A stretch of 64,000 nt of DNA from an uncultured delta proteobacterium. Lineage in GTDB: Bacteria > Myxococcota > Myxococcia > Myxococcales > Myxococcaceae. A program made the translations under genes and the position numbers. The DNA lies in NCBI GenBank assembly GCA_963771175.1, contig CAVYSY010000057.1, positions 32,001 to 96,000 on the forward strand. Reading direction: 5' to 3'. The notes under the pieces are model-generated. The model was not told the DNA's origin. It did not search any database and saw only the letters and a program-made list of their open reading frames with translations. Positions 30,016 to 64,000 of the stretch are shown in pieces; position 1 is the stretch's first letter, and each line of letters starts with the position of its first letter.

Positions 30016-33000
30016 ATGGAAACTCCTTTTACCCAGAAGCTCGATGTGGAGGCCCTTCGCGCGCCTCCGGTGGCAGGGGACCCCTTCGCCCGCGTGGTGG
30101 AGCTGCTCCGCCCTGGCCTGCGTGTCCGGACACAGGGCATCCAGGGAGCCGCTCGCGGGCATGCGCTCGCCCGGCTCACGCGCACCCTCCAGGCGCCCCT
30201 CGTCTGCATCGCCCCCGATGAAGAGTCCGCGGATGCGCTCGCGAATGACCTCGCCTTCTTCCTCGGCGGCCGAGGGACCGCGCGCGAGCCCCGCGTCCTC
30301 CGCCTCCCGGCCGACGAGGTGCTCCCCTACGACGAGCTCTCCCCGGATGCGGACGCCGTCGCCGATCGGCTCGGCGCCCTCTTCCACCTGAGCAAGGGCA
30401 CCCGCTTCCCCGCGCTCGTGCTGTCGATGCGCGGCCTCTTCCGCAAGGTGCTGCCCACGCAGGTGATGAGCGAGCTGTCCGAGCGCGTCGGCGTGGGCCA
30501 GGACTTCGACCGCGACGCGCTCGCCCGCAAGCTCGCCAACATGGGCTACCAGAGCAGCCCGCTCGTCGAGGACCTGGGCACCTTCTCCGTGCGCGGCGGC
30601 CTCATCGACGTCTTCAGCCCGCTCTACGACAAGCCCGTCCGCATCGAGTTCTTCGGCGACACCATCGAGTCCATCCGCGCCTTCGATCCGGAGTCGCAGC
30701 GCACCGTGGACTCACTCCAGGAGATCATCCTCCTGCCCGCGCGCGAGGTCATCTTCTCCGAGCAGACGCGCGCGCGCGCCGAGTCCGCGGCCCGTGCCGT
30801 CGCCGACCGCATCAACCTGCCCACCACGAAGTTGCGCGAGCAGCTCGACGCCATCCGCGAGGGCCTGCCCGGCTTCGGGCTGGAGGGCCTGCTGCCCGGC
30901 TTCTTCGAGGGAGGCCTGGGCACCGTCTTCGACTACCTCTCCCAGTGGCACCAGGAGCCGCTCTTCTACCTGGACGACCCCCTGGGCCTCGAGCGCGTCG
31001 CCGAGGAGCTATGGACCGAGGTGGAGCGCTCCGCCCACGCCGCCGATGAGCGGCAGGACCTCACCTGCCCGCCCGGGGAGCACTTCCTCACCCACGAGGA
31101 GTTGAATCAGAAGCTCGCGACCTTCCGCGTGATGGAGGGCGGGGGCCTGTCGCTCACCCAGAGCGAGACGCCGCCCGTGCTCTTCTCCTTCGGCTCCACC
31201 GAGGACGTGCGCCAGGCCATCCTCGCCCACCACGGTGAGGAGGGCGCGCTCACCCCGCTCGTCGAGCGGCTCCAGCGCTGGCGTGACTCCCGCGTCGCCT
31301 GCGCCGTGGCTTGCGGCGCCCTGAGCCAGGCGGACCGCCTCAAGCACCTGCTGCTGGACCGCAACGTGATGGTGCGCGTCCACACCGAGCCGCTCGAGGA
31401 TGCGTCCACGCTCTACGAGCCCTCCGTCTACGCCCACCTCTTCACGGGCGAGGTGAGCCACGGCTTCGTGGACGGGGCCGGTGGCCTCGCCGTGCTCTCC
31501 GACGAGGAGATTTTTGGCGCTCGGGCCCGCCGTCGCGTGCGGCGCTCGAAGAGCCTGGATGCCTTCGCCTCGGGCTTCAAGGACCTCAAGGAAGGCGACC
31601 TCATCGTCCACACCGACTTCGGCATCGGCCGCTATTCGGGCCTGACGAAGATGCAGGTGAACGGCGTGCCCGGGGACTTCCTCGTCCTCGAGTACCTCGG
31701 CAAGGACAAGATCTACCTCCCGGTGGGCCGCATGCGGCTCATCCAGAAGTTCACCGGTGGCGACCCCACCCAGGTGACGCTGGACAAGCTGGGGACCACG
31801 TCCTGGGAGAAGACGAAGAAGCGGGTCAAGGAGCAGCTCCTCAAGATGGCGGCCGAGCTCCTCAACATCGCGGCGGCGCGCCGGGCGCACCCGGGCCACG
31901 CCTTCAGCCCGCCGGACCGGTACTACGCCCAGTTCGAGGCGGACTTCGAGTTCGAGGAGACGCCGGACCAGGGCAAGGCCATCGAGGACGTGCTCAGCGA
32001 CATGCAGAAGTCCGAGCCGATGGACCGGCTCGTCTGCGGCGACGTGGGCTACGGCAAGACGGAGGTGGCGATGCGCGCCGCCTTCAAGGCCACGCTGGAC
32101 CGCAAGCAGGTGGCGGTGCTGGTGCCCACCACCGTGCTGGCGCAGCAGCACTACCTCTCCTTCAAGAAGCGCTTCAAGGACTACCCCGTCGCGGTGGAAG
32201 TCATCTCCGGCATGAAGAAGCCGCAGGAGGTGCGGGAAATCCTCAAGCGCACCAAGGAGGGCAAGGTCGACATCCTCATCGGCACGCACAAGCTGCTGGC
32301 GGGAGACGTGTCCTTCAAGGACCTGGGGCTGCTCGTGGTGGACGAGGAGCAGCGCTTCGGGGTGAAGCACAAGGAGCAGATCAAGCGGCTGCGCGCCCTG
32401 GTGGACGTGCTCACGCTGTCGGCGACGCCGATTCCCCGCACGCTGCACATGGCCATGTCGGGCGTGCGCGAGATGAGCATCATCGCCACCCCGCCGCAGG
32501 ACCGGCGCGCCATCCGCACCTTCGTGCTGAAGTTCGACGAGCAGACCATCAAGGACGCCATCGAGCGCGAGGTGGCCCGCGGCGGTCAGGTCTTCTTCGT
32601 GCACAACCGGGTGGAGTCCCTCCCCGCGATGGAGGAGCTGCTCAAGAAGCTGGTGCCCCACATCTCCTTCGGCGTGGCGCACGGGCAGATGGGCGAGGGC
32701 CAGCTCGAGAAGGCGATGCTGGACTTCACCGAGAAGAAGTACCAGGTGCTGCTGTGCACCAGCATCATCGAGAGCGGCATCGACATCTCGAGCGCCAACA
32801 CGATGATCGTCAACCGGGCGGACACGTTCGGTCTGGCGCAGCTCTACCAACTCCGGGGCCGAGTGGGCCGCTCGAAGGAGCGCGCGTACGCGTACCTGCT
32901 GGTGCCGGCGCGGCGCACCGTCACCAAGGACGCGCAGCGACGCCTGGAGGTGCTGCAGCGCTTCACCGAGCTGGGCGCGGGCTTCTCCATCGCGAGCCAT

Positions 33001-56707: not shown

Positions 56708-57364
56708 TCAGTAGGTGAGGAACCGCGAGTCGGTCATCAGCGCGATGCACACCGCCGCCAGGGCCTGGTCACGCTTGGCGATGGTCTCGGCGCGAGCCGC
56801 CGCCTGGGTGAAGAAACCCACCCAGCGCGTCAGCTCCTCGCCCTCCAGCGGCGAGCCCCAGAAGCGGGTGGACAGGTACACGAGCAGCTCGCGCACCTGG
56901 GCATCCGTGAGCTTGCGCAGGTCCGCCACCGCCCCCGAGGGCAGCGTGCGGCTGAGCACGCGGGCCGCCGGGTCCGTCAGCTTCACCTCGGCGCTCGCCT
57001 GGGTGATGCACACCTCGCGCGCCCCGTCCTCGAGGAACTTGGCGAAGACGAGGTTGGGCTCGGTGCTCTCGACGTTGACGAGCGCGTAGTCCGCCCGCCC
57101 CAGCGAGGGCGCCAGGCTGTCGAGCTGCGTCCACGGCCGGCCCACCGCCACCTCGATGGAGCGGGCGAGCTGGTTGACGGTGATGCGGCGCGGAGCGCGC
57201 CCCACCCGACCGTCCTGCAGCTCGGGGTCCGGCAGCGGAGTCATGTCCCCGTGCGGGTTGGCCACGGGCTCCAGTTGGCCATCCACCGGAGGCGGAGTGG
57301 CAGGGGTCTTCTCGCACGCGGCGGTGCCGAGCGCGACCAGCGCGAGCATGAGCAGGCGGCGCAT
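56708..57364 (-). CDS. Hypothetical lipoprotein (DUF1587/DUF1553-like motifs)
   Basis: Lipobox TAAC; RRITVNQLARSI; C-terminal AVCIALMTDSRFLTY. Confidence 0.7.
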   Translation of the reverse strand: MRRLLMLALVALGTAACEKTPATPPPVDGQLEPVANPHGDMTPLPDPELQDGRVGRAPRRITVNQLARSIEVAVGRPWTQLDSLAPSLGRADYALVNVESTEPNLVFAKFLEDGAREVCITQASAEVKLTDPAARVLSRTLPSGAVADLRKLTDAQVRELLVYLSTRFWGSPLEGEELTRWVGFFTQAAARAETIAKRDQALAAVCIALMTDSRFLTY

Positions 57365-59394
57365 CAGTCGATCCTCCGGTAGGCGTCGGTCATCACCAGA
57401 CGCTCGATGAGCGCCTTGAAGCGGTGGCCGTCTCGCGCGAAACCTTCGGCGAGCGGCTCGAGGTAGAGGCGCTGCTCCTCCGCCGACATGGGCCGGCCGA
57501 GGAACTCCTGCCAGACGCGCCGCACCGTGCAGCGCTCCAGGTCGCCCGTCTGCAGCATGCGCTGCACCAGCAGCTCGGGGCCGCCGTCGATGTTCCGCTC
57601 CTCGTCCTCCGTGCGGTAGAGGTACGTCTTGAGCATGCCCAGCGACGCGGCGCCGTCGCCGTCGTAGGCCTGCATCACGTACTGGCCGCACTCGCCACCG
57701 CAGGTGGTGTTGCCGGAGAGCGCGCAGTCGCGGCACTTCGGGTCGTAGCGGGGGAAGTGGTCCGAGTCGAGGAAGAGCGCGGCGCGCTCGGCGAAGCGGC
57801 CCCAGTGCGCGCCGGTGGGCTCGATGGTGGCGTGGCAGTAGTTGCAGCCGCAGCGCTTGGCCAGGTTGTTCTCCCGGTTGCAGGCGTCCTCGGCGGCCGG
57901 CAGGCGCGCGTTGTCCGCCGGGGTGAAGGTCTTGCAGAGGAAGGCCGAGTAGAACTGGTTGACGCGGGCGCGCTGGGTGGGGAAGCGGTAGAGGAACGAG
58001 GCCGTGGTGAGCACGCCCGAGTGCTGCGTGCCGCGCATGTACTCCTTCCAGCTGTCCGCATCCGTGTAGGGCACCTCGGGCAGCACCGCCGCGTCCGCCG
58101 GGGGGGTGGCGTTGAAGACGCCCAGGCCCTGCTCCGGATTACGGTAGAGCTGGGACAGGGGGCCGTTCACGAACGAGCGGCGCGTGGTGAGGATGTTGAA
58201 GTAGGGCTCGTCCCGGCGCACCACCGAGTCGGCGATGAGCTCGGGCTCGGCGTTGAAGGCCGCCACGCGGGCGTTGTGCGTGGAGCCGTCGGGCGCCTCG
58301 CAACGCCCCATTCCCTCGCCGCAGCCACAGCTCCGGTCGATGTTGAAGCGCGCGGTCGTGCAGGGCTCCAGCGTCCAGGGGTTGGCCGTGCGCGCCTGCG
58401 CCTCGATGGCGCACACCCTCACGTCCGCGCCCGTGGTGCTCCAGAAGGGCGCCGGCCGGGTCACGTAGCCCTCGCGCTGCACGCAGCCGCGCGGCGACTC
58501 GTAGGAGCCCTTGATGTTGCCGTTCTTCAGCTGGAGCTCCAGCGTGCAGCGCCCCAGCGGCACCGTCGAGGTGGCGGACGTGAAGGCCACCACCCGCGTC
58601 CCCTCCAGCACCTCCTGGGTGTACCCGGCCGCGCTGACCTTGGTGGGGTCTGGCTGGCACAGGTGGGGCACCAGCGCGCCACCCACGCGCCGCATGTCAC
58701 AGAAGAACATGTACTTGTCGTCGAGGCGCCCTCGGTTCTTCGCCTCCGCGCACGAGTTGATGGTGGGGTCGGAGGTGGTGGTGCCGGAGACCAGGTCCAG
58801 CCGGTCGCAGCGGTAGTAGTTGAGGTCGTAGTCCCAGCTCACCGGCAGCGGCACGCCGCGCTCGTCGTAGCGCTCCTTGGCGCAGTCCGCGGCGGCCGGG
58901 AGCGCGGGGTCCGCATGCGGATCCTGCCGGGCGTTGCACACGTCCTGGGCGAGGTAGCTGTCACAGCCCTGGTTGTTGGCCCCGCGCAGCTGGCGGCTGG
59001 GGTTGCCACGCAGGGACAGCGCGTCCGTGGCGGAGCCCACGCCGGACAGGCGCGTGTTGCGGTTGTTGTTGACGCTGGCGCTCACGTTGCTCCACAGGAG
59101 CGCGCGGTGGTAGCCGCGGATGCGCGCGAAGAACTCCTCCTGCTGCATCAGCGCGCGAACGTCCTCGACCGTCACCTCCCCCTTGGCCCGAGCGGCCTGG
59201 TACTCCTCATAGGTGGGGGGGCGGCCGAGCAGGTCGAGGCTGAGCTGGCGCAGGTGACGCTCGAGGGGAACCTTCGAGACCGGGGCACACACCGGGGCTT
59301 CCGCGAGAGCGGGGGCGGCAGCCAGCAGAACGGTGGCGGCCAGAGTGGCGAGGCAACAGCGTGCGGGGAGCACGGAACCTCCGAGAGAACGCAA
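57364..59394 (-). CDS. Secreted Cys-rich DUF1549/DUF1588/DUF1585-like protein with CxxCH
   Basis: Signal peptide; LRQLSLDLLGRPPT, HSGVLTT, CNYCHATIEP and C-terminal CTVRRVWQEFLGRP...FKALIERLV. Confidence 0.75.
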   Translation of the reverse strand: MRSLGGSVLPARCCLATLAATVLLAAAPALAEAPVCAPVSKVPLERHLRQLSLDLLGRPPTYEEYQAARAKGEVTVEDVRALMQQEEFFARIRGYHRALLWSNVSASVNNNRNTRLSGVGSATDALSLRGNPSRQLRGANNQGCDSYLAQDVCNARQDPHADPALPAAADCAKERYDERGVPLPVSWDYDLNYYRCDRLDLVSGTTTSDPTINSCAEAKNRGRLDDKYMFFCDMRRVGGALVPHLCQPDPTKVSAAGYTQEVLEGTRVVAFTSATSTVPLGRCTLELQLKNGNIKGSYESPRGCVQREGYVTRPAPFWSTTGADVRVCAIEAQARTANPWTLEPCTTARFNIDRSCGCGEGMGRCEAPDGSTHNARVAAFNAEPELIADSVVRRDEPYFNILTTRRSFVNGPLSQLYRNPEQGLGVFNATPPADAAVLPEVPYTDADSWKEYMRGTQHSGVLTTASFLYRFPTQRARVNQFYSAFLCKTFTPADNARLPAAEDACNRENNLAKRCGCNYCHATIEPTGAHWGRFAERAALFLDSDHFPRYDPKCRDCALSGNTTCGGECGQYVMQAYDGDGAASLGMLKTYLYRTEDEERNIDGGPELLVQRMLQTGDLERCTVRRVWQEFLGRPMSAEEQRLYLEPLAEGFARDGHRFKALIERLVMTDAYRRID

Positions 59395-59534
59395 CGGCGA
59401 GGGGGGACAGCATCTCCACTTATGCCAATAATTCCTGTTATTGACCAGCGACTTGCTCGGTGAGCGGAGAAGCGAGCCCGAACAGGTGCAATCGAGTTGC
59501 GCACGAGGCCACAGCCGGGACAGAAAGGTGCGCC

Positions 59535-60098
59535 ATGTCTGATGCCGCCCCTGCTTCGCTCCGAGTCAGTGACCGCTCCTTCTACGTCTTCACGGCGGTG
59601 GTCTCCGCCGCGGCCCTCGCCTTCCTCTCTTACATTCTCATCATTCGGAAAGGAGGGCCGGTGGGCGGGTTGGATCTGCGCTTCCTGCCGGCGGTGAACG
59701 CGAGCTTCAACGCGCTCGCGGCGGCCTTCCTCACCGCGGGCTGGGTGGCCATCCGCCGTGGCGCACGGCGCGTGCACCAGTACCTGATGGTGTCCGCCTT
59801 CGCCTCGTCGGCGCTCTTCCTGGTGTGCTACCTCGCCTATCACTTCGTCCACGGCGACACGCGCTACGCCGGGAGCGGGGTGCTGCGGACGGTGTACCTG
59901 CTCATCCTCGCCAGCCACGTGCTGCTGTCGCTGTTCGTGGTGCCGGGCGCGCTGCTGTCCTTCTACTTCGCGTGGCGCAAGGCCTTCGACCGGCACCGCA
60001 AGGTGACGCGGTGGCTGGCCCCCATCTGGCTCTACGTGTCCGTGACGGGCGTGGTCATCTTCTTCATGCTGCGCGGCAGCCTGCCCACCGCGCCCTGA
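59535..60098 (+). CDS. DUF420 (YozB/CtaM-like) membrane protein
   Basis: LPAVNASFN, HQYLMVSAF, ILASHVLLS and HRK...PIWLYVSVTG motifs. Confidence 0.88.
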   Translation: MSDAAPASLRVSDRSFYVFTAVVSAAALAFLSYILIIRKGGPVGGLDLRFLPAVNASFNALAAAFLTAGWVAIRRGARRVHQYLMVSAFASSALFLVCYLAYHFVHGDTRYAGSGVLRTVYLLILASHVLLSLFVVPGALLSFYFAWRKAFDRHRKVTRWLAPIWLYVSVTGVVIFFMLRGSLPTAP

Positions 60099-60129
60099 GC
60101 GGCGGGACGGAGTGCCGGAACCGCTCGCT

Positions 60130-61302
60130 TCACGGTCCGGACGCCGGCATGCAGCCCCACTGCTTCATGTCCTCCGAGACGGTGGCGCATTGCCACCCCT
60201 CGCCACAGGAATCCAGGTCCAGCGGGTCGCACTGACGGAAGCAGGTGCTCACGTTGGCGCTCCCCATGCCACAGAGCTGACCCGCGGGGCAGCTGTCCGC
60301 CCAGAGCGGATTGCAGAGACGAGCGCACCAGAAGACGCCTCGGCCCCGAAACAGGCGGAAGTTGCACCGCTCCCCTTCGCCACAGGGTGTTTCCGGGCAC
60401 TCCCCCTGAACGCTCGTGAGGCACTGGTAGGAGGAGTCCTCGCCGAGGCGCTTGCACCGCTTCCCCTGGGGGCACCCGAGTTGCCCGCAGTCCGGATGGC
60501 ACCCGGGGCCATTCGGGGTGTCCTTACAGACATGTCCAGCGGGACAGCTCGACGGCGCGTCCAACCGGCAGCGGGGGCTGCATCTGCCCAGCAGGCAGAC
60601 CAGCCCCTCCCGACAAGTACCCGCCGCAGAGATATATCCAGGCTCGCAGGGCTCTCCCTCACGTCGTTGCCCCTCGGGCGTACAGCGGCGGACGATGGCT
60701 CCCGAGGTGCCGGGAGTCAGCGCGAGGCAGAGGAAGCCAGGGAAACAGTGTCCATCCTCCTCGCAGTCGGAGGCCACGCACTCGAAGCGGCGCGTCTCCC
60801 GATTGGGCACACACCCCTGGCCTGGAGGGCAGTCGCTGTCGATATGGCAACCACCACAAACGAAGGTCCCCGCGTCGTCCAACGCGCAGCGCAGGCCCGC
60901 CGCGGGAAGACCATCCGGCATGATTTCCTCCGAGGCCAGTGGTGGGTCCATCATGGTAGCGCCTGTCGGGTCCGCCCTGCTCGCGACGAGGAATCCAGGA
61001 CGCTCGGGTCCCGGCACGCGGAGTGAGTCGACTCCATGTGCCCGCGCTCACGGGGCGGGAGGCCTGCTCGGAGTTGGTTCGGCATCATGATGGACGAGCG
61101 CCTTCCCCCGCGACGAAGGAATGACAGCTTGAAATGACGTGCTGGGGACGCCTGTGCCTTCTTCTGAAGAGAGTCGTTCACCCTCGCTCGACAACGGAGG
61201 GGTGGAAGGCGGCCAGAACAAAAGACCACTCCCCAGAGTGATGACAAGCCCAGCACATAACAGACTTAGAGCCGTATGTGGCCTGAGTCGTGGCTGCCCC
61301 AT
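60130..61302 (-). CDS. Membrane-anchored Cys-rich repeat protein, interrupted by one in-frame TGA at 61048-61050
   Basis: ORFs 61048..61302 (TM anchor plus Pro/Ser linker) and 60130..61017 (dense CxxDxxCPxGxxC repeats) are in the same frame. Confidence 0.65.
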
Positions 61303-61350
61303 GACCTTCCGTCCCAGCGAGAGAGGAGATTCCGTGCAGCTTCTTCTCGC

Positions 61351-61521
61351 TCAGCAGTCACCATAGCCACAGCACATGAGGTAGCCTCCGTCGGTGGCAC
61401 ACCCGCAGGGAAGACACTTGTAGCACTCCTTGTACATCGCTGCCGCGCTTCCACCGATGAGAGCACCAGCCGAGCTCGCGGCCACGAACCACCAGAAAAG
61501 CATTCGCTTCACGTTTTTCAT
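61351..61521 (-). CDS. Unannotated 56-aa secreted Cys-rich peptide
   Basis: Manual translation: MKNVKRMLFWWFVAASSAGALIGGSAAAMYKECYKCLPCGCATDGGYLMCCGYGDC*. Signal peptide ending in AAA; 7 Cys in 28 mature residues; below the ORF-track size cutoff. Confidence 0.75.
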   Translation of the reverse strand: MKNVKRMLFWWFVAASSAGALIGGSAAAMYKECYKCLPCGCATDGGYLMCCGYGDC

Positions 61522-61623
61522 GAGGCCCGCTGTCTGCGATTACTGGGAACCCTAGGCTCTCCCTGATGACTCGGTCAATCCGTGGGAAAGCGCGGCTCGT
61601 GGCGCATGTCCACATCAGGACTT

Positions 61624-62062
61624 TCATTGAAGTCTTTCGTCTGGCGACTCCGATTGGAGAAGCTCCGACATGCCCAGCCCTCGCGGCAGGCGCATGGTGA
61701 AGGCCGAACCCTTTCCCTCCTCGCTCTCCACGGAGCGTGTAGAGGGCGCGGGCCTGCGCGGGAATGTCGCTGGCCGGGAAGTGCAGGCCCAGGAAGCTGT
61801 CCATGTCCGCGGCGCGGCTCTCCGCCAGCACCTCGCCGGGCCAGTCCGCGTCGAAGCGGTACACCATCACCCGCTCGAAGCCGGTGAGCGAGCGCACCGC
61901 GTCCGCCGCCGCCTGCAGCAGCCCCTGTGAGCCCCGGGCCCGGGCGAGCGGCGAGAGGAGCAGGTCCACCATCGCCAGCGAACCCTCCTCGCCGACGGCC
62001 TCCGTTGCGGGCTCCAGCTCCAGCACGGTCAACCCATCGCTCCGGTGAAGCAGGCCGACCGC
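61624..62062 (-). pseudogene. bphP: Bacteriophytochrome remnant with large deletions
   Basis: LLHRSDGLTVLELEP, LTGFERVMVYRF and GLHFPASDIPAQARALY joined out of frame to a kinase tail SVESEEGKGSAFTMRLP*. Confidence 0.85.
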
Positions 62063-62070
62063 TTCCCGCG

Positions 62071-62098
62071 AGGGGCCCCGGGAGGAACCGGGGCCCCT
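62071..62098 (-). terminator. Hairpin downstream of the S8 protease gene
   Basis: AGGGGCCCCGG-gaggaa-CCGGGGCCCCT. Confidence 0.6.
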
Positions 62099-62112
62099 GG
62101 CTCAGCGACCTG

Positions 62113-64000
62113 TCACGGGATGGAGCACGCACCGGAGCCGGTGCCGTCGTCGTAGCAAATGTAGCCCGAGCGGCAGCTGCCCTGTCCGCCCACGCCCGTG
62201 CAGGTGGCGTAGCAGGATGCCGAGGTCTCCTGCGCGTCATCGTAGAAGCACTTGGAGCCCGCCGGGCAGGCGGAGTCGAGGCAGTCCTGGGTGCAATACC
62301 CACCCGGGAAGCCATTAGCGGCCGTCTTGCACCGCTCCCCCGCGCCGCAATTCGAGTCGCTGGTGCAGGACTGGCCCACCTTCGAGACCGGCGCCTCCTC
62401 GATGGGCTTGTAGGGTACCAGCGAGAAGCTGACCCCCTTCACCGTCTGGTTCACCGTCACGTCGAGGGGCTCGACCTGGGTGGCATCCCGCCAGAAGCCC
62501 ACGCGCTCCCCGGCCTCGAAGAACTTCTCATCCCCATCGTCGTCGATGGTGGCCAGCACGAAGTAGGAGCGCGGGGCGAGCGACACGGAGTAGCCGTAAC
62601 CGCTCCCCGCACTCACCAACGCCACCCCGTCGTCGTCCACCTGCCACTCGCCCAGGGCATCCTGGTAGGCGAAGGCGATGACGGCGTCCTTGTCCTGCGT
62701 GGCGCCCACGCGGAACCTCACCATCACGGTGGCGGAGCCCGCCCCGGTGGAGGTGCTGGAGAGGGAGAGCTGGGCCGAGTAGTCGCCGTTGGGCAGCGAC
62801 CCGGAGTTGACGCTCACCGTGAGGGAAGCCGACTTGTAGGCAGGAATGGACAGAGAGGCGCTGGAGACGGACACCGAGGAGGCCTGCGGCCCGCTGATGC
62901 TGGCGTTCACCTGGAGCGTGCCACCACCGACGTTGCGCACCGTGAGCTGCTGGGAGCCGCTGCCCGTGAAGGAGAGCTGGCTGGAGCTCACGCCGAGCTT
63001 CGCCGGCGCGCTGGTGTCGGAGCTGCCCTGGGCCCGCCGCACGGCGGCCTGGGCGTTGACGAGACCGGCGCCACAGCCCTCGGCACACTGGCTCGCCGGG
63101 TCGGCCGTCTCCTTGAGGATGGTCTCCACGTCCGCGGCGTTGAGGTCGGGGTTCACCGACAACATCAGCGCCACGATGCCAGCCACGTGCGGGGCGGCCA
63201 TGCTCGTGCCGTTGTACCAATCGTAGCTCGGCTGGTTGCTACCGTTGGGCAGGGTGGACAGCACGCCGTCCGGCTCGCCGTCGCCGTTGAGGTCCTCGCT
63301 CACCTGGCCGCCGGCGGCCATGACATCCACGGGGGCGCCATAGTTGGAGAAGCTGCTGCGTTTGCCGTTGAAGCGCGTCGAGCCCACGCAGATGACGTTC
63401 TGCATGTTGCACGGGAAGGTGTTGGTGGCGTCCTCGTTCGCGTTGCCGGCGGCGATGACGAAGACGGCGCCCGGGGCACTGTCGATGATTTCCTGCACCG
63501 CCTGCCCTCCGGTGCCCCGACCACCGAGGCTCAGGTTGATGACGCGGGCGGGCGTGGTGTTGGCGCGCGCGCCGGGCACGATGCCACCAGCGGCCCACTT
63601 CATGCCCGCGGCGATGTCGCCCAGCGTGCCGCCCGAGGTGCCCAGCACGCGGACCGGGAGGAGCTTGCCCGCCCAGGTGACGCCCGCCACGCCGAGGTTG
63701 TTGTTGGACACCGCGCCCATGGTGCCAGCCACGTGCGTGCCGTGGAACGAGGAGCCTCCGTTGGGCATGTCCTTGCCCAGGTCGGTCGGGTCGTTGTCGA
63801 CCCCATCGCCGTCACCCGCCTTGGTGCCGTCCGAGATGAGGTCCACACCGGGAATGACGCGGGCGTCCAGATCCGGGTGCCGGGTGATGCCGGTGTCCAC
63901 CACCGCCATGACGATGGAGTCCTTTCCGGTGGTGATGTCCCAGGCGGCCGGCAGGTTCATGTTCGGGTAGTGCCACTGCTGGGAATAGCGCGGATCGTTC
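62113..64000 (-). CDS. S8 subtilisin-like serine protease with Ig-like and C-terminal Cys-rich domains (5'-truncated by window edge)
   Basis: Catalytic triad motifs VVDTG, HGTHVAGT and GTSMAAPHVAG; tail CTSDSNCGAGERC...GGYCTQDC. Confidence 0.92.
   Translation of the reverse strand, partial: NDPRYSQQWHYPNMNLPAAWDITTGKDSIVMAVVDTGITRHPDLDARVIPGVDLISDGTKAGDGDGVDNDPTDLGKDMPNGGSSFHGTHVAGTMGAVSNNNLGVAGVTWAGKLLPVRVLGTSGGTLGDIAAGMKWAAGGIVPGARANTTPARVINLSLGGRGTGGQAVQEIIDSAPGAVFVIAAGNANEDATNTFPCNMQNVICVGSTRFNGKRSSFSNYGAPVDVMAAGGQVSEDLNGDGEPDGVLSTLPNGSNQPSYDWYNGTSMAAPHVAGIVALMLSVNPDLNAADVETILKETADPASQCAEGCGAGLVNAQAAVRRAQGSSDTSAPAKLGVSSSQLSFTGSGSQQLTVRNVGGGTLQVNASISGPQASSVSVSSASLSIPAYKSASLTVSVNSGSLPNGDYSAQLSLSSTSTGAGSATVMVRFRVGATQDKDAVIAFAYQDALGEWQVDDDGVALVSAGSGYGYSVSLAPRSYFVLATIDDDGDEKFFEAGERVGFWRDATQVEPLDVTVNQTVKGVSFSLVPYKPIEEAPVSKVGQSCTSDSNCGAGERCKTAANGFPGGYCTQDCLDSACPAGSKCFYDDAQETSASCYATCTGVGGQGSCRSGYICYDDGTGSGACSIP

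Follow-up and report, generated by a model that had tools for sequence, protein, structure and literature searches.

What a myxobacterium does with a 56-residue protein that carries seven cysteines in its last 28 residues, and that is encoded just ahead of a second cysteine-rich protein, is the question raised by one locus in the genome of an uncultured delta proteobacterium of the Myxococcaceae (assembly GCA_963771175.1, contig CAVYSY010000057.1, forward-strand positions 32,001 to 96,000). The window, as the whole 64,000-nucleotide stretch of analysed DNA is called here, holds both genes on its minus strand; the small protein is termed the peptide and the larger one its partner. A preliminary description, made from the letters alone, had proposed that the two constitute a dedicated two-gene system, and this proposal is strongly supported by linkage in 44 of 44 cases, by parallel divergence and by a complex prediction that scores above its controls. 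The best explanation of the locus, which is given an even chance of being correct, is that it belongs to a conserved, self-contained two-gene module of Archangium-group myxobacteria whose products would be exported and form a peptide-partner complex.

The peptide open reading frame (ORF) announced at 61351-61521 on the minus strand is present with its seven cysteines, and its conservation indicates that it is a real gene and a member of a conserved, selected family. Of 151 genomes of the same family that were searched with a peptide profile built from three copies, 35 gave a match, including every genome sampled in three genera (10 of 10 in g1, 8 of 8 in g22 and 10 of 10 in g30); the names of partner homologues identify the carriers as Archangium, Melittangium, Stigmatella, Hyalangium and Vitiosangium. 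Genomes contain one to four divergent copies of the module, and the source genome has three more peptide copies besides that of the window, one of them with an internal TGA. The ratio of nonsynonymous to synonymous substitution (dN/dS), computed pairwise over whole ORFs, lies between 0.07 and 0.46 in 18 of 19 peptide pairs, the remaining pair being saturated, and the ORF therefore looks like a translated gene under purifying selection. Two alignments, of 31 and of 64 sequences, show no variation at C33, C39, C50, C56 and G45 and at least 90% conservation at A26, A28, G40, C41 and D44; G23 reaches that level in the 31-sequence alignment. Residues 1-28 resemble a Sec-type signal, with an n-region bearing K/R among the first 10 residues, a hydrophobic core, a following G-G-S-A-A-A and an A-x-A at -3/-1 (A26 and A28). 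These are the features of a signal peptidase I substrate, and the peptide is accordingly classed by its sequence as Sec-dependent and secreted, with cleavage predicted.

The relatives in public collections carry no functional name. A single-sequence word search of public proteins with the window peptide returned zero matches, and the family profile gathered 34 clusters at E <= 0.001 among 5.8 billion public proteins, all of them "hypothetical" or unnamed; such peptides appear to be rarely present in public protein sets. The closest peptide found to that of the window is 64% identical, and the nearest ESM Atlas clusters stand at 0.79-0.82 for the peptide and 0.85-0.86 for the partner, below 0.9 in both cases and hence leads only. 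The peptide matches no Pfam or NCBIfam family above threshold, and literature searches on cysteine-rich or small disulfide proteins of myxobacteria, on secreted peptides of Archangium and on Dickkopf in myxobacteria returned nothing on either protein.

The two genes travel together. In the window the partner ORF is co-oriented with the peptide gene, as had been described, and begins with an ATG at 61302, 48 nt past the peptide stop and 2 nt after a GGAAGG (61310-61305). Across genomes, the partner lies directly downstream on the same strand in 44 of the 47 listed peptide matches, a count made up of 30 loci found by tblastn (a single uninterrupted alignment each), three loci of the source genome and 11 established by coordinates. 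The remaining three are partial matches of 25-38 residues (E 3.9e-4 to 5.7e-3) in genomes without a listed partner match and are provisionally taken as chance. Viewed in reverse, a peptide precedes 43 of 49 strong matches to the partner of this module (type I, as distinct from the more distant paralogues treated below), and in one annotated record of a metagenome-assembled genome the peptide and partner carry consecutive locus tags. When the 132 proteins encoded around 15 loci were compared with Pfam, the surroundings proved to vary by genus and to include no third conserved gene; the unit is the two genes. Only the partner is constant in this sample, and no enzyme family recurs across genera, in keeping with the preliminary observation that no modifying enzyme for a peptide synthesised by the ribosome and modified after translation (RiPP) is adjacent. 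The same scan found no ATP-binding cassette (ABC) transporter, which together with the Sec-like leader separates the peptide from class II bacteriocins and microcins, and no conserved transporter or metal regulator beside the module.

AlphaFold2 modelled the last 32 residues of the peptide (64 sequences) as a beta-hairpin with a predicted local distance difference test (pLDDT) score of 82.2, about 92 in the core; its strands span residues 8-17 and 23-31 of this segment. The cysteines of the window peptide are at positions 33, 36, 39, 41, 50, 51 and 56, and more than 90% of peptides have an odd cysteine count, either seven or five. In one whole clade (the 5-Cys clade) the second and sixth cysteines are missing together, and in four sequences only the fourth is missing. 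Their joint loss in that clade suggests that C36 and C51 form an optional disulfide, while elimination and the geometry of the hairpin suggest C33-C56 and C39-C50 as invariant disulfides; C41, by the turn, is probably unpaired. Foldseek retrieved nothing from the PDB at E below 5 for the peptide model. The idea that the peptide is a split-off repeat of the partner was rejected, hhalign of the peptide against the partner profile giving a probability of 2% and no sequence relation.

Partners are proteins of about 380 residues. They start with a cytoplasmic tail of about 10-15 residues and a hydrophobic segment, which are followed by a Pro/Ser/Ala-rich linker of about 90 residues and a Cys-rich domain of about 260 residues. 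Several Archangium copies have an A-T-A-S after the hydrophobic segment and the window copy has no such site; the segment could be a signal-anchor or a cleavable signal. Across 32 aligned partners 34 cysteine columns are invariant, and the domain therefore probably contains 17 disulfides. The preliminary description had taken the window partner for a membrane-anchored protein, overlooking an in-frame TGA at 61050-61048 (codon 85) that splits its frame. The 272-residue domain of this copy was nevertheless modelled by AlphaFold2 (66 sequences) as successive beta-hairpins with a pLDDT of 92.6 and a predicted template modelling (pTM) score of 0.83. Foldseek found no PDB match to this model at E <= 0.001 and a TM-score of at most 0.15, the best local matches being EGF, tumour necrosis factor receptor cysteine-rich domain (TNFR-CRD) and Dickkopf modules (3s2k_C, Dickkopf, probability 0.85 over 79 columns). 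Among 48,161 chains compared with VIA-align, 18 reached Z >= 2 and none reached 5; the best, at Z 3.0, is the knottin toxin 1eit, which superposes on a single module (residues 92-127) with a root-mean-square deviation of 1.9 A over 31 residues. On the strength of the model, the partner domain is likely to be a new fold. Profile databases agree in offering little: Pfam PF04706 (Dickkopf_N) remained below its 25-bit threshold, with 14.7 bits (E 0.04) for the window partner and 15.6 bits for the copy on contig C27, NCBIfam TIGR04201 (Myxo_Cys_RPT) did not match type-I partners at E <= 1, and all named partner homologues are called "hypothetical protein". The partner profile found 359 relatives at E <= 0.001 among 1.84 billion representatives. 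The best 150 of these 359 are nearly all 160-430 residues long, the exceptions being a 76-residue fragment and proteins of 546 and 2216 residues, and no fusion to a signalling domain is therefore apparent among them.

The preliminary description had suggested modelling the two proteins together and asking whether they diversify together; the first predicts an interaction and the second is compatible with one. For the complex, the window partner domain and peptide residues 25-56 were combined, each with its own alignment. The interaction prediction score from aligned errors (ipSAE) was 0.69, 0.87 and 0.92 in three runs (median 0.87), and 0.02, 0.42 and 0.00 in three controls, the proposed pair thus scoring above every control (0.87 vs 0.42 for the best). 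The pLDDT of the peptide in the complex was at least 63. In the best run nearly the whole mature peptide is buried except turn residues 40, 41 and 43-45, and the closest contacts join peptide residues 47-51 to partner residues 17-21, the strand before the first cysteine, and peptide residues 35-37 to partner residues 254-256. Distances among mature peptides and among partner domains are strongly correlated (Mantel r = 0.84, with 0 of 2000 permutations as high), and nearest neighbours agree for 21 of 32 peptide-partner pairs. The two clades with the most altered peptides are also those in which the partner segments in predicted contact differ, which comes to two or three events and is no more than suggestive.

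The following scheme would account for these observations. Both genes would be transcribed together and both products would pass through Sec. The peptide's signal would be cut after the conserved A-x-A to leave about 27 residues, which would be oxidised to a beta-hairpin held by two invariant disulfides and one optional one, with a near-invariant extra cysteine adjoining an exposed C-G-C-x-x-D-G-G turn. The partner, likewise exported, would fold into a compact domain of small disulfide-rich hairpin modules. Outside the cytoplasm the peptide would dock in this domain, as a stoichiometric subunit or as a ligand, and in the model it does so between the strand before the first cysteine (D-G-L-P-x-x-x-x-R-C) and the C-terminal modules.

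Several results weigh against this explanation. Of solved complexes, 116 of 157 come up to the mark used to judge the complex score, as against 2 of 215 mismatched pairs, and this calibration is only rough here since custom alignments were used. The runs agree in as few as 3% of contacts, and the pose is therefore not settled. Parallel divergence is weak support because adjacent genes share history. The predicted interface, instead of being the more conserved part, is more variable than the other non-cysteine residues of the partner (entropy 1.87 vs 1.40, p = 0.002), which is ambiguous in that it could reflect a specificity surface or just exposed loops. Six of the 49 type-I partners are without an intact peptide gene, and a partner can thus persist alone; in two of these a peptide gene is missing altogether and in two it survives as decayed remnants, the last two being an N-terminally truncated partner fragment of the source genome and a locus at a contig edge. 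None of the listed sequencing runs contained more than 12% of the stretch's sampled words, and no RNA run was listed for it. Finally, given the TGA in its partner, the copy in the window may do nothing.

Other functions for such a pair have to be considered. A beta-hairpin is a shape common to many antimicrobial peptides, and the peptide might be a secreted bacteriocin-like toxin that a tethered immunity partner sequesters at the producer's envelope. The small, disulfide-locked hairpin that is predicted would suit this role, as would the one to four divergent module copies per genome, the variable predicted interface, and the presence of the window copy as a strain-specific insertion. None of the 44 peptides is without a partner while some partners are without a peptide, and toxin-immunity pairs typically show such an asymmetry. 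Genes for polymorphic toxins and their immunity proteins are found 3-5 kb away from two of the loci (AHH and Imm11 at one, Tox-REase-5 and Imm52 at the other), and small bacteriocins of myxobacteria, the fulvocins, are cited in PMC8708641. The mature peptides are, however, neutral to acidic rather than cationic, no exporter across the outer membrane is linked to the module in the 15 loci, and a 380-residue protein with 17 disulfides would be a costly immunity factor for a peptide of 27 residues. In the window, moreover, it is the "toxin" that is intact and the "immunity" gene that has a stop. The module is also found in all sampled genomes of three genera with dN/dS values that indicate purifying rather than diversifying selection; this presence, the recurring neighbours and the low dN/dS argue for a stable role over an arms race, and a toxin with its immunity factor is considered rather unlikely.

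Very unlikely, by comparison, is a diffusible signal peptide that acts in cell-cell communication through the partner as its cell-surface receptor. A predicted exported peptide with a dedicated predicted binding partner is what such a system would require, and genes for an extracytoplasmic function (ECF) sigma factor, a sigma-54 enhancer-binding protein and XRE proteins adjoin the module in several genera. DUF2381 genes stand beside the Archangium copies, and DUF2381-kinase clusters are proposed to regulate phase variation in M. xanthus according to bioRxiv 10.64898/2026.08.28.747804. Yet the partner has no signalling domain behind its short tail, and no extension of recognisable signalling size occurs among the best 150 of the 359 relatives; a classical receptor role is unlikely for these reasons. 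There is also no evident route for the peptide across the outer membrane, and expression from one operon in a fixed ratio fits a constitutive complex better. A metal or redox pair, in which the partner would carry a peptide that binds copper or another thiophilic metal or that senses redox state through its thiols, was given the faintest chance of all the explanations considered. The odd cysteine count of most peptides and the near-invariant C-G-C by a turn that lies outside the predicted interface speak for it. Cysteines are nevertheless lost in the manner of disulfides (C36 with C51, and C41 alone), those of the partner are even in number (34) and its hairpin-module model is confident, and no conserved metal transporter or metal regulator was found nearby in the 15 loci. 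The exported complex of peptide and partner remains the preferred explanation.

The module may be one form of a more general arrangement. Distant paralogues of the partner, about 295 residues long and 31-38% identical, occur many times per genome, and these type-II proteins are directly preceded, or overlapped, by the gene for a small lipoprotein of about 80 residues with 4-5 cysteines, in which a lipobox is followed by a conserved C-P-x-T-W/Y-G and an acidic helix. This pairing was found at 6-7 of 11 sites in the source genome; four other genera showed it at 7 of the 9 sites inspected, two of their genomes having only a single copy among the matches. The literature searches turned up no description of this module either. 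Neither type-II protein matches Pfam or NCBIfam above threshold; one paralogue has a weak match to TIGR04201 (E 0.006, 16.7 bits against a cut-off of 25), and some distant paralogues bear the database name "Dickkopf N-terminal cysteine-rich domain-containing protein". This distribution suggests a general rule by which a small exported cysteine protein is paired with a Cys-rich partner. An improbable but far-reaching extension is that the partner superfamily constitutes an unrecognised myxobacterial class of extracytoplasmic, receptor-like, cystine-rich proteins that need a small co-subunit encoded upstream. The co-subunit would be the Sec-exported cystine hairpin in type I and the small lipoprotein with 4-5 cysteines in type II. 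Should the lipoprotein reside in the outer membrane and its partner in the inner one, given a Pro-rich linker long enough to cross the periplasm, the modules would act as trans-envelope tethers or sensors. Bacteria would then have their own equivalent of the cysteine-rich ligand/receptor pairs of eukaryotes, and the exposed, free-thiol hairpin turn would be a reactive or recognition tip.

The copy in the window is a lineage-specific inserted paralogue. The flanks have matches in each of the genus's 17 other genomes, none of which has a module at the site, and where the window has the segment 60104-61660 its closest relative (DUF420 gene 96% identical) has only 41 nt of intergenic sequence. No direct or inverted repeats that would mark a transposon or a target duplication were found at the insertion borders. 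At the DNA level the insert is closest to a partner fragment from another place in the source genome, with 77% identity in the Cys-rich part only. The insertion lies at a damaged locus. Compared with the closest relative, 2762 nt and 1024 nt have been deleted from the neighbouring operon, the second deletion taking the heme oxygenase gene; the intact operon of that relative (L066) encodes heme oxygenase, a bacteriophytochrome histidine kinase of PAS2-GAF-PHY type and a response-regulator/kinase, of which the window retains remnants (Table 1).

The TGA in the window partner reflects either a decaying copy or an assembly error. In the N-terminal piece, the G+C content at third codon positions (GC3) is 0.55, compared with 0.71-0.88 in most of 30 intact loci (full range 0.58-0.96), a low value that would agree with decay or with a foreign origin. 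Completeness of the assembly is 81.7%, and comparison of one 19-kb stretch with a complete relative shows frameshifts in 2 of 12 matched genes and the loss of most of a third; three further Cys-rich partner copies in the source genome are frameshifted, beside the peptide copy with a TGA already mentioned. With so many broken genes and such completeness, single-base defects such as this TGA may be errors, and the broken genes in general could represent sequencing error or real decay. Selenocysteine insertion or read-through was rejected: only 1 of 49 type-I rows has an internal stop, that of the window, the other 48 having none, and the TGA codon falls in the linker, which is variable and not conserved.

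Two further features that the preliminary description had singled out at this copy fared less well. The spacer does contain a perfect 7-bp inverted repeat (61316-61322/61345-61351) around a 22-nt loop, but its fold is not above chance, with a minimum free energy of -18 kcal/mol where shuffled sequences give -18.9 +/- 2.7 (z = +0.34) and 128 of 200 of them fold equally well or better, and the suggestion that a hairpin here boosts peptide mRNA is left unsupported. A terminator scan detected no terminator-like site behind the peptide gene, those found lying elsewhere; a promoter scan gave 0 sigma-70-like sites; and Rfam gave 0 matches at E <= 0.1 within 59400-62200. The reported AT-richness of the peptide gene and the 5' region of the partner is real, with 58-60% G+C over about 61100-61700 vs 68-76% in the flanks and 57.9% in the peptide gene vs 69.4% in the genome; for the peptide gene it is a family trait and nothing special to the window locus, the peptide genes of 30 other loci having 58-73% and mostly 58-68%.

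Table 1. Positions of the module and related features. Plain ranges refer to the window; loci (L) and contigs (C) elsewhere are named.
Feature	Location	Strand	Remark
Peptide precursor gene, 56 aa, ATG start	61351..61521	minus	stop codon included
Mature peptide coding part, residues 29-56 (28 aa)	61354..61437	minus	predicted beta-hairpin
Spacer, 48 nt	61303..61350	minus	7-bp inverted repeat and GGAAGG ahead of partner ATG
Partner N-terminal piece, 84 codons	61048..61302	minus	short basic tail, hydrophobic segment, start of linker
Partner after TGA, same frame	60130..61047	minus	rest of linker, Cys-rich domain, stop at 60130-60132
Cys-rich domain, 272 aa	60133-60948	minus	all 34 family-invariant Cys
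Segment of 1557 nt with module	60104..61660	.	absent from relatives; G+C 64.5%
Response-regulator/histidine-kinase gene, 75 nt of 3' end	61661-61735	minus	operon remnant
GAF fragment of phytochrome gene	61735-62057	minus	operon remnant
Type-II module, source genome	L060 (C40:173500-176100) 354-1468	minus	
Type-II module, source genome	L061 (C11:178700-181500) 1159-2289	plus	
Further type-II sites, source genome	C29, C55, C30, C6, C26		
Further type-II sites, other genera	L074-L078, L081, L083		
DUF2381/TIGR02268 genes	L056 9581-10495; L045 8742-9638; L046 10033-10812; L047 9620-10531		
DUF2381/TIGR02268 gene	L061 475-1065		adjoins type-II module
Broken-gene regions, source genome	L056 (C56:59000-78000); L003/L057 (C27); C27:26372-27645		

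The genes around the module differ from genus to genus and recur within those genera where more than one locus was examined. They include DUF2381 with alanine racemase, a lipase with alanine racemase, a divergently oriented ECF sigma factor, a sigma-54 activator, and XRE regulators. In all four Archangium loci that were annotated, a DUF2381/TIGR02268 gene lies directly upstream of the peptide gene and co-oriented with it, and an alanine racemase gene lies downstream. The type-I partners that stand without any peptide gene are those of L070 (G092:C1:12996700-12999900) and L068 (G129:C1:11031500-11034600). One directly follows a co-oriented gene that by eye is ECF sigma-like, with region-4-like sequence, the other follows a gene that by eye resembles Sel1 repeats, and both retain the docking motif as D-G-L-P...R/H-C. 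Close to the module, the window also contains a subtilase (Peptidase_S8) gene at 62113-63999 on the minus strand that runs off the window end; its C-terminal Cys-rich tail is of similar flavour, with C-x-x-D-x-x-C-x-x-G-x-x-C and a weak DUF7107 match. On the other side, at 57364-59394 on the minus strand, a 676-residue Cys-containing protein has sub-threshold matches to PSD2, PSCyt2 and PSD1 (DUF1585, DUF1549 and DUF1553, of Planctomycete type).

Small secreted bacterial proteins are badly under-annotated, and the 56-residue gene is a conserved, partner-tied case without a functional name. The pair offers a likely new fold, a directly testable predicted protein-peptide interface, and an entry to the wider modules of a small exported protein with a Cys-rich partner, which exist in many copies in myxobacteria, organisms noted for social behaviour, predation and a complex envelope. 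Should the toxin-immunity explanation be true, the peptide would represent a new kind of Sec-dependent, disulfide-rich bacteriocin; a structural or sensory role would make the pair an envelope component of a new type.

Among known systems, pairs of a bacteriocin and its immunity protein resemble the module in that a small, predicted exported peptide is encoded beside a dedicated protein expected to bind it, with divergent copies per genome, and fulvocin C, cited in PMC8708641, is a small bacteriocin made by myxobacteria. The module differs from these pairs in its Sec-type rather than double-glycine leader, in the lack of a linked ABC exporter, in peptides that are not cationic, and in an "immunity" candidate of 380 residues and 34 cysteines. 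The predicted hairpin is similar to the disulfide-laddered hairpins of animals. Tachyplesin, protegrin, theta-defensin and hepcidin, for example, are about 20-30 residues long with 2-4 cross-strand disulfides; the module peptide, by contrast, is bacterial and neutral to acidic, has an extra, probably unpaired cysteine and comes with a dedicated partner gene. The partner, as a string of small disulfide-rich hairpin modules, recalls the EGF repeats, TNF-receptor CRDs, Dickkopf/colipase domains and knottins of eukaryotic Cys-rich ectodomains, but without a global match (TM-score <= 0.15, Z <= 3.0), the likeness holding per single module only. With the Myxo_Cys_RPT proteins of the TraA type the partner shares a myxobacterial origin, predicted export and short Cys-rich repeats; TraA itself is defined by a PA14-like domain and a MYXO-CTERM tag, and the partner has neither. 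The type-II pairs, finally, may be compared with RcsF-IgaA, in which a small disulfide-bonded lipoprotein works with an inner-membrane partner. The analogy of a lipoprotein with an anchored paralogue extends to architecture alone, since the sequences are unrelated and the partner described here has no cytoplasmic domain.

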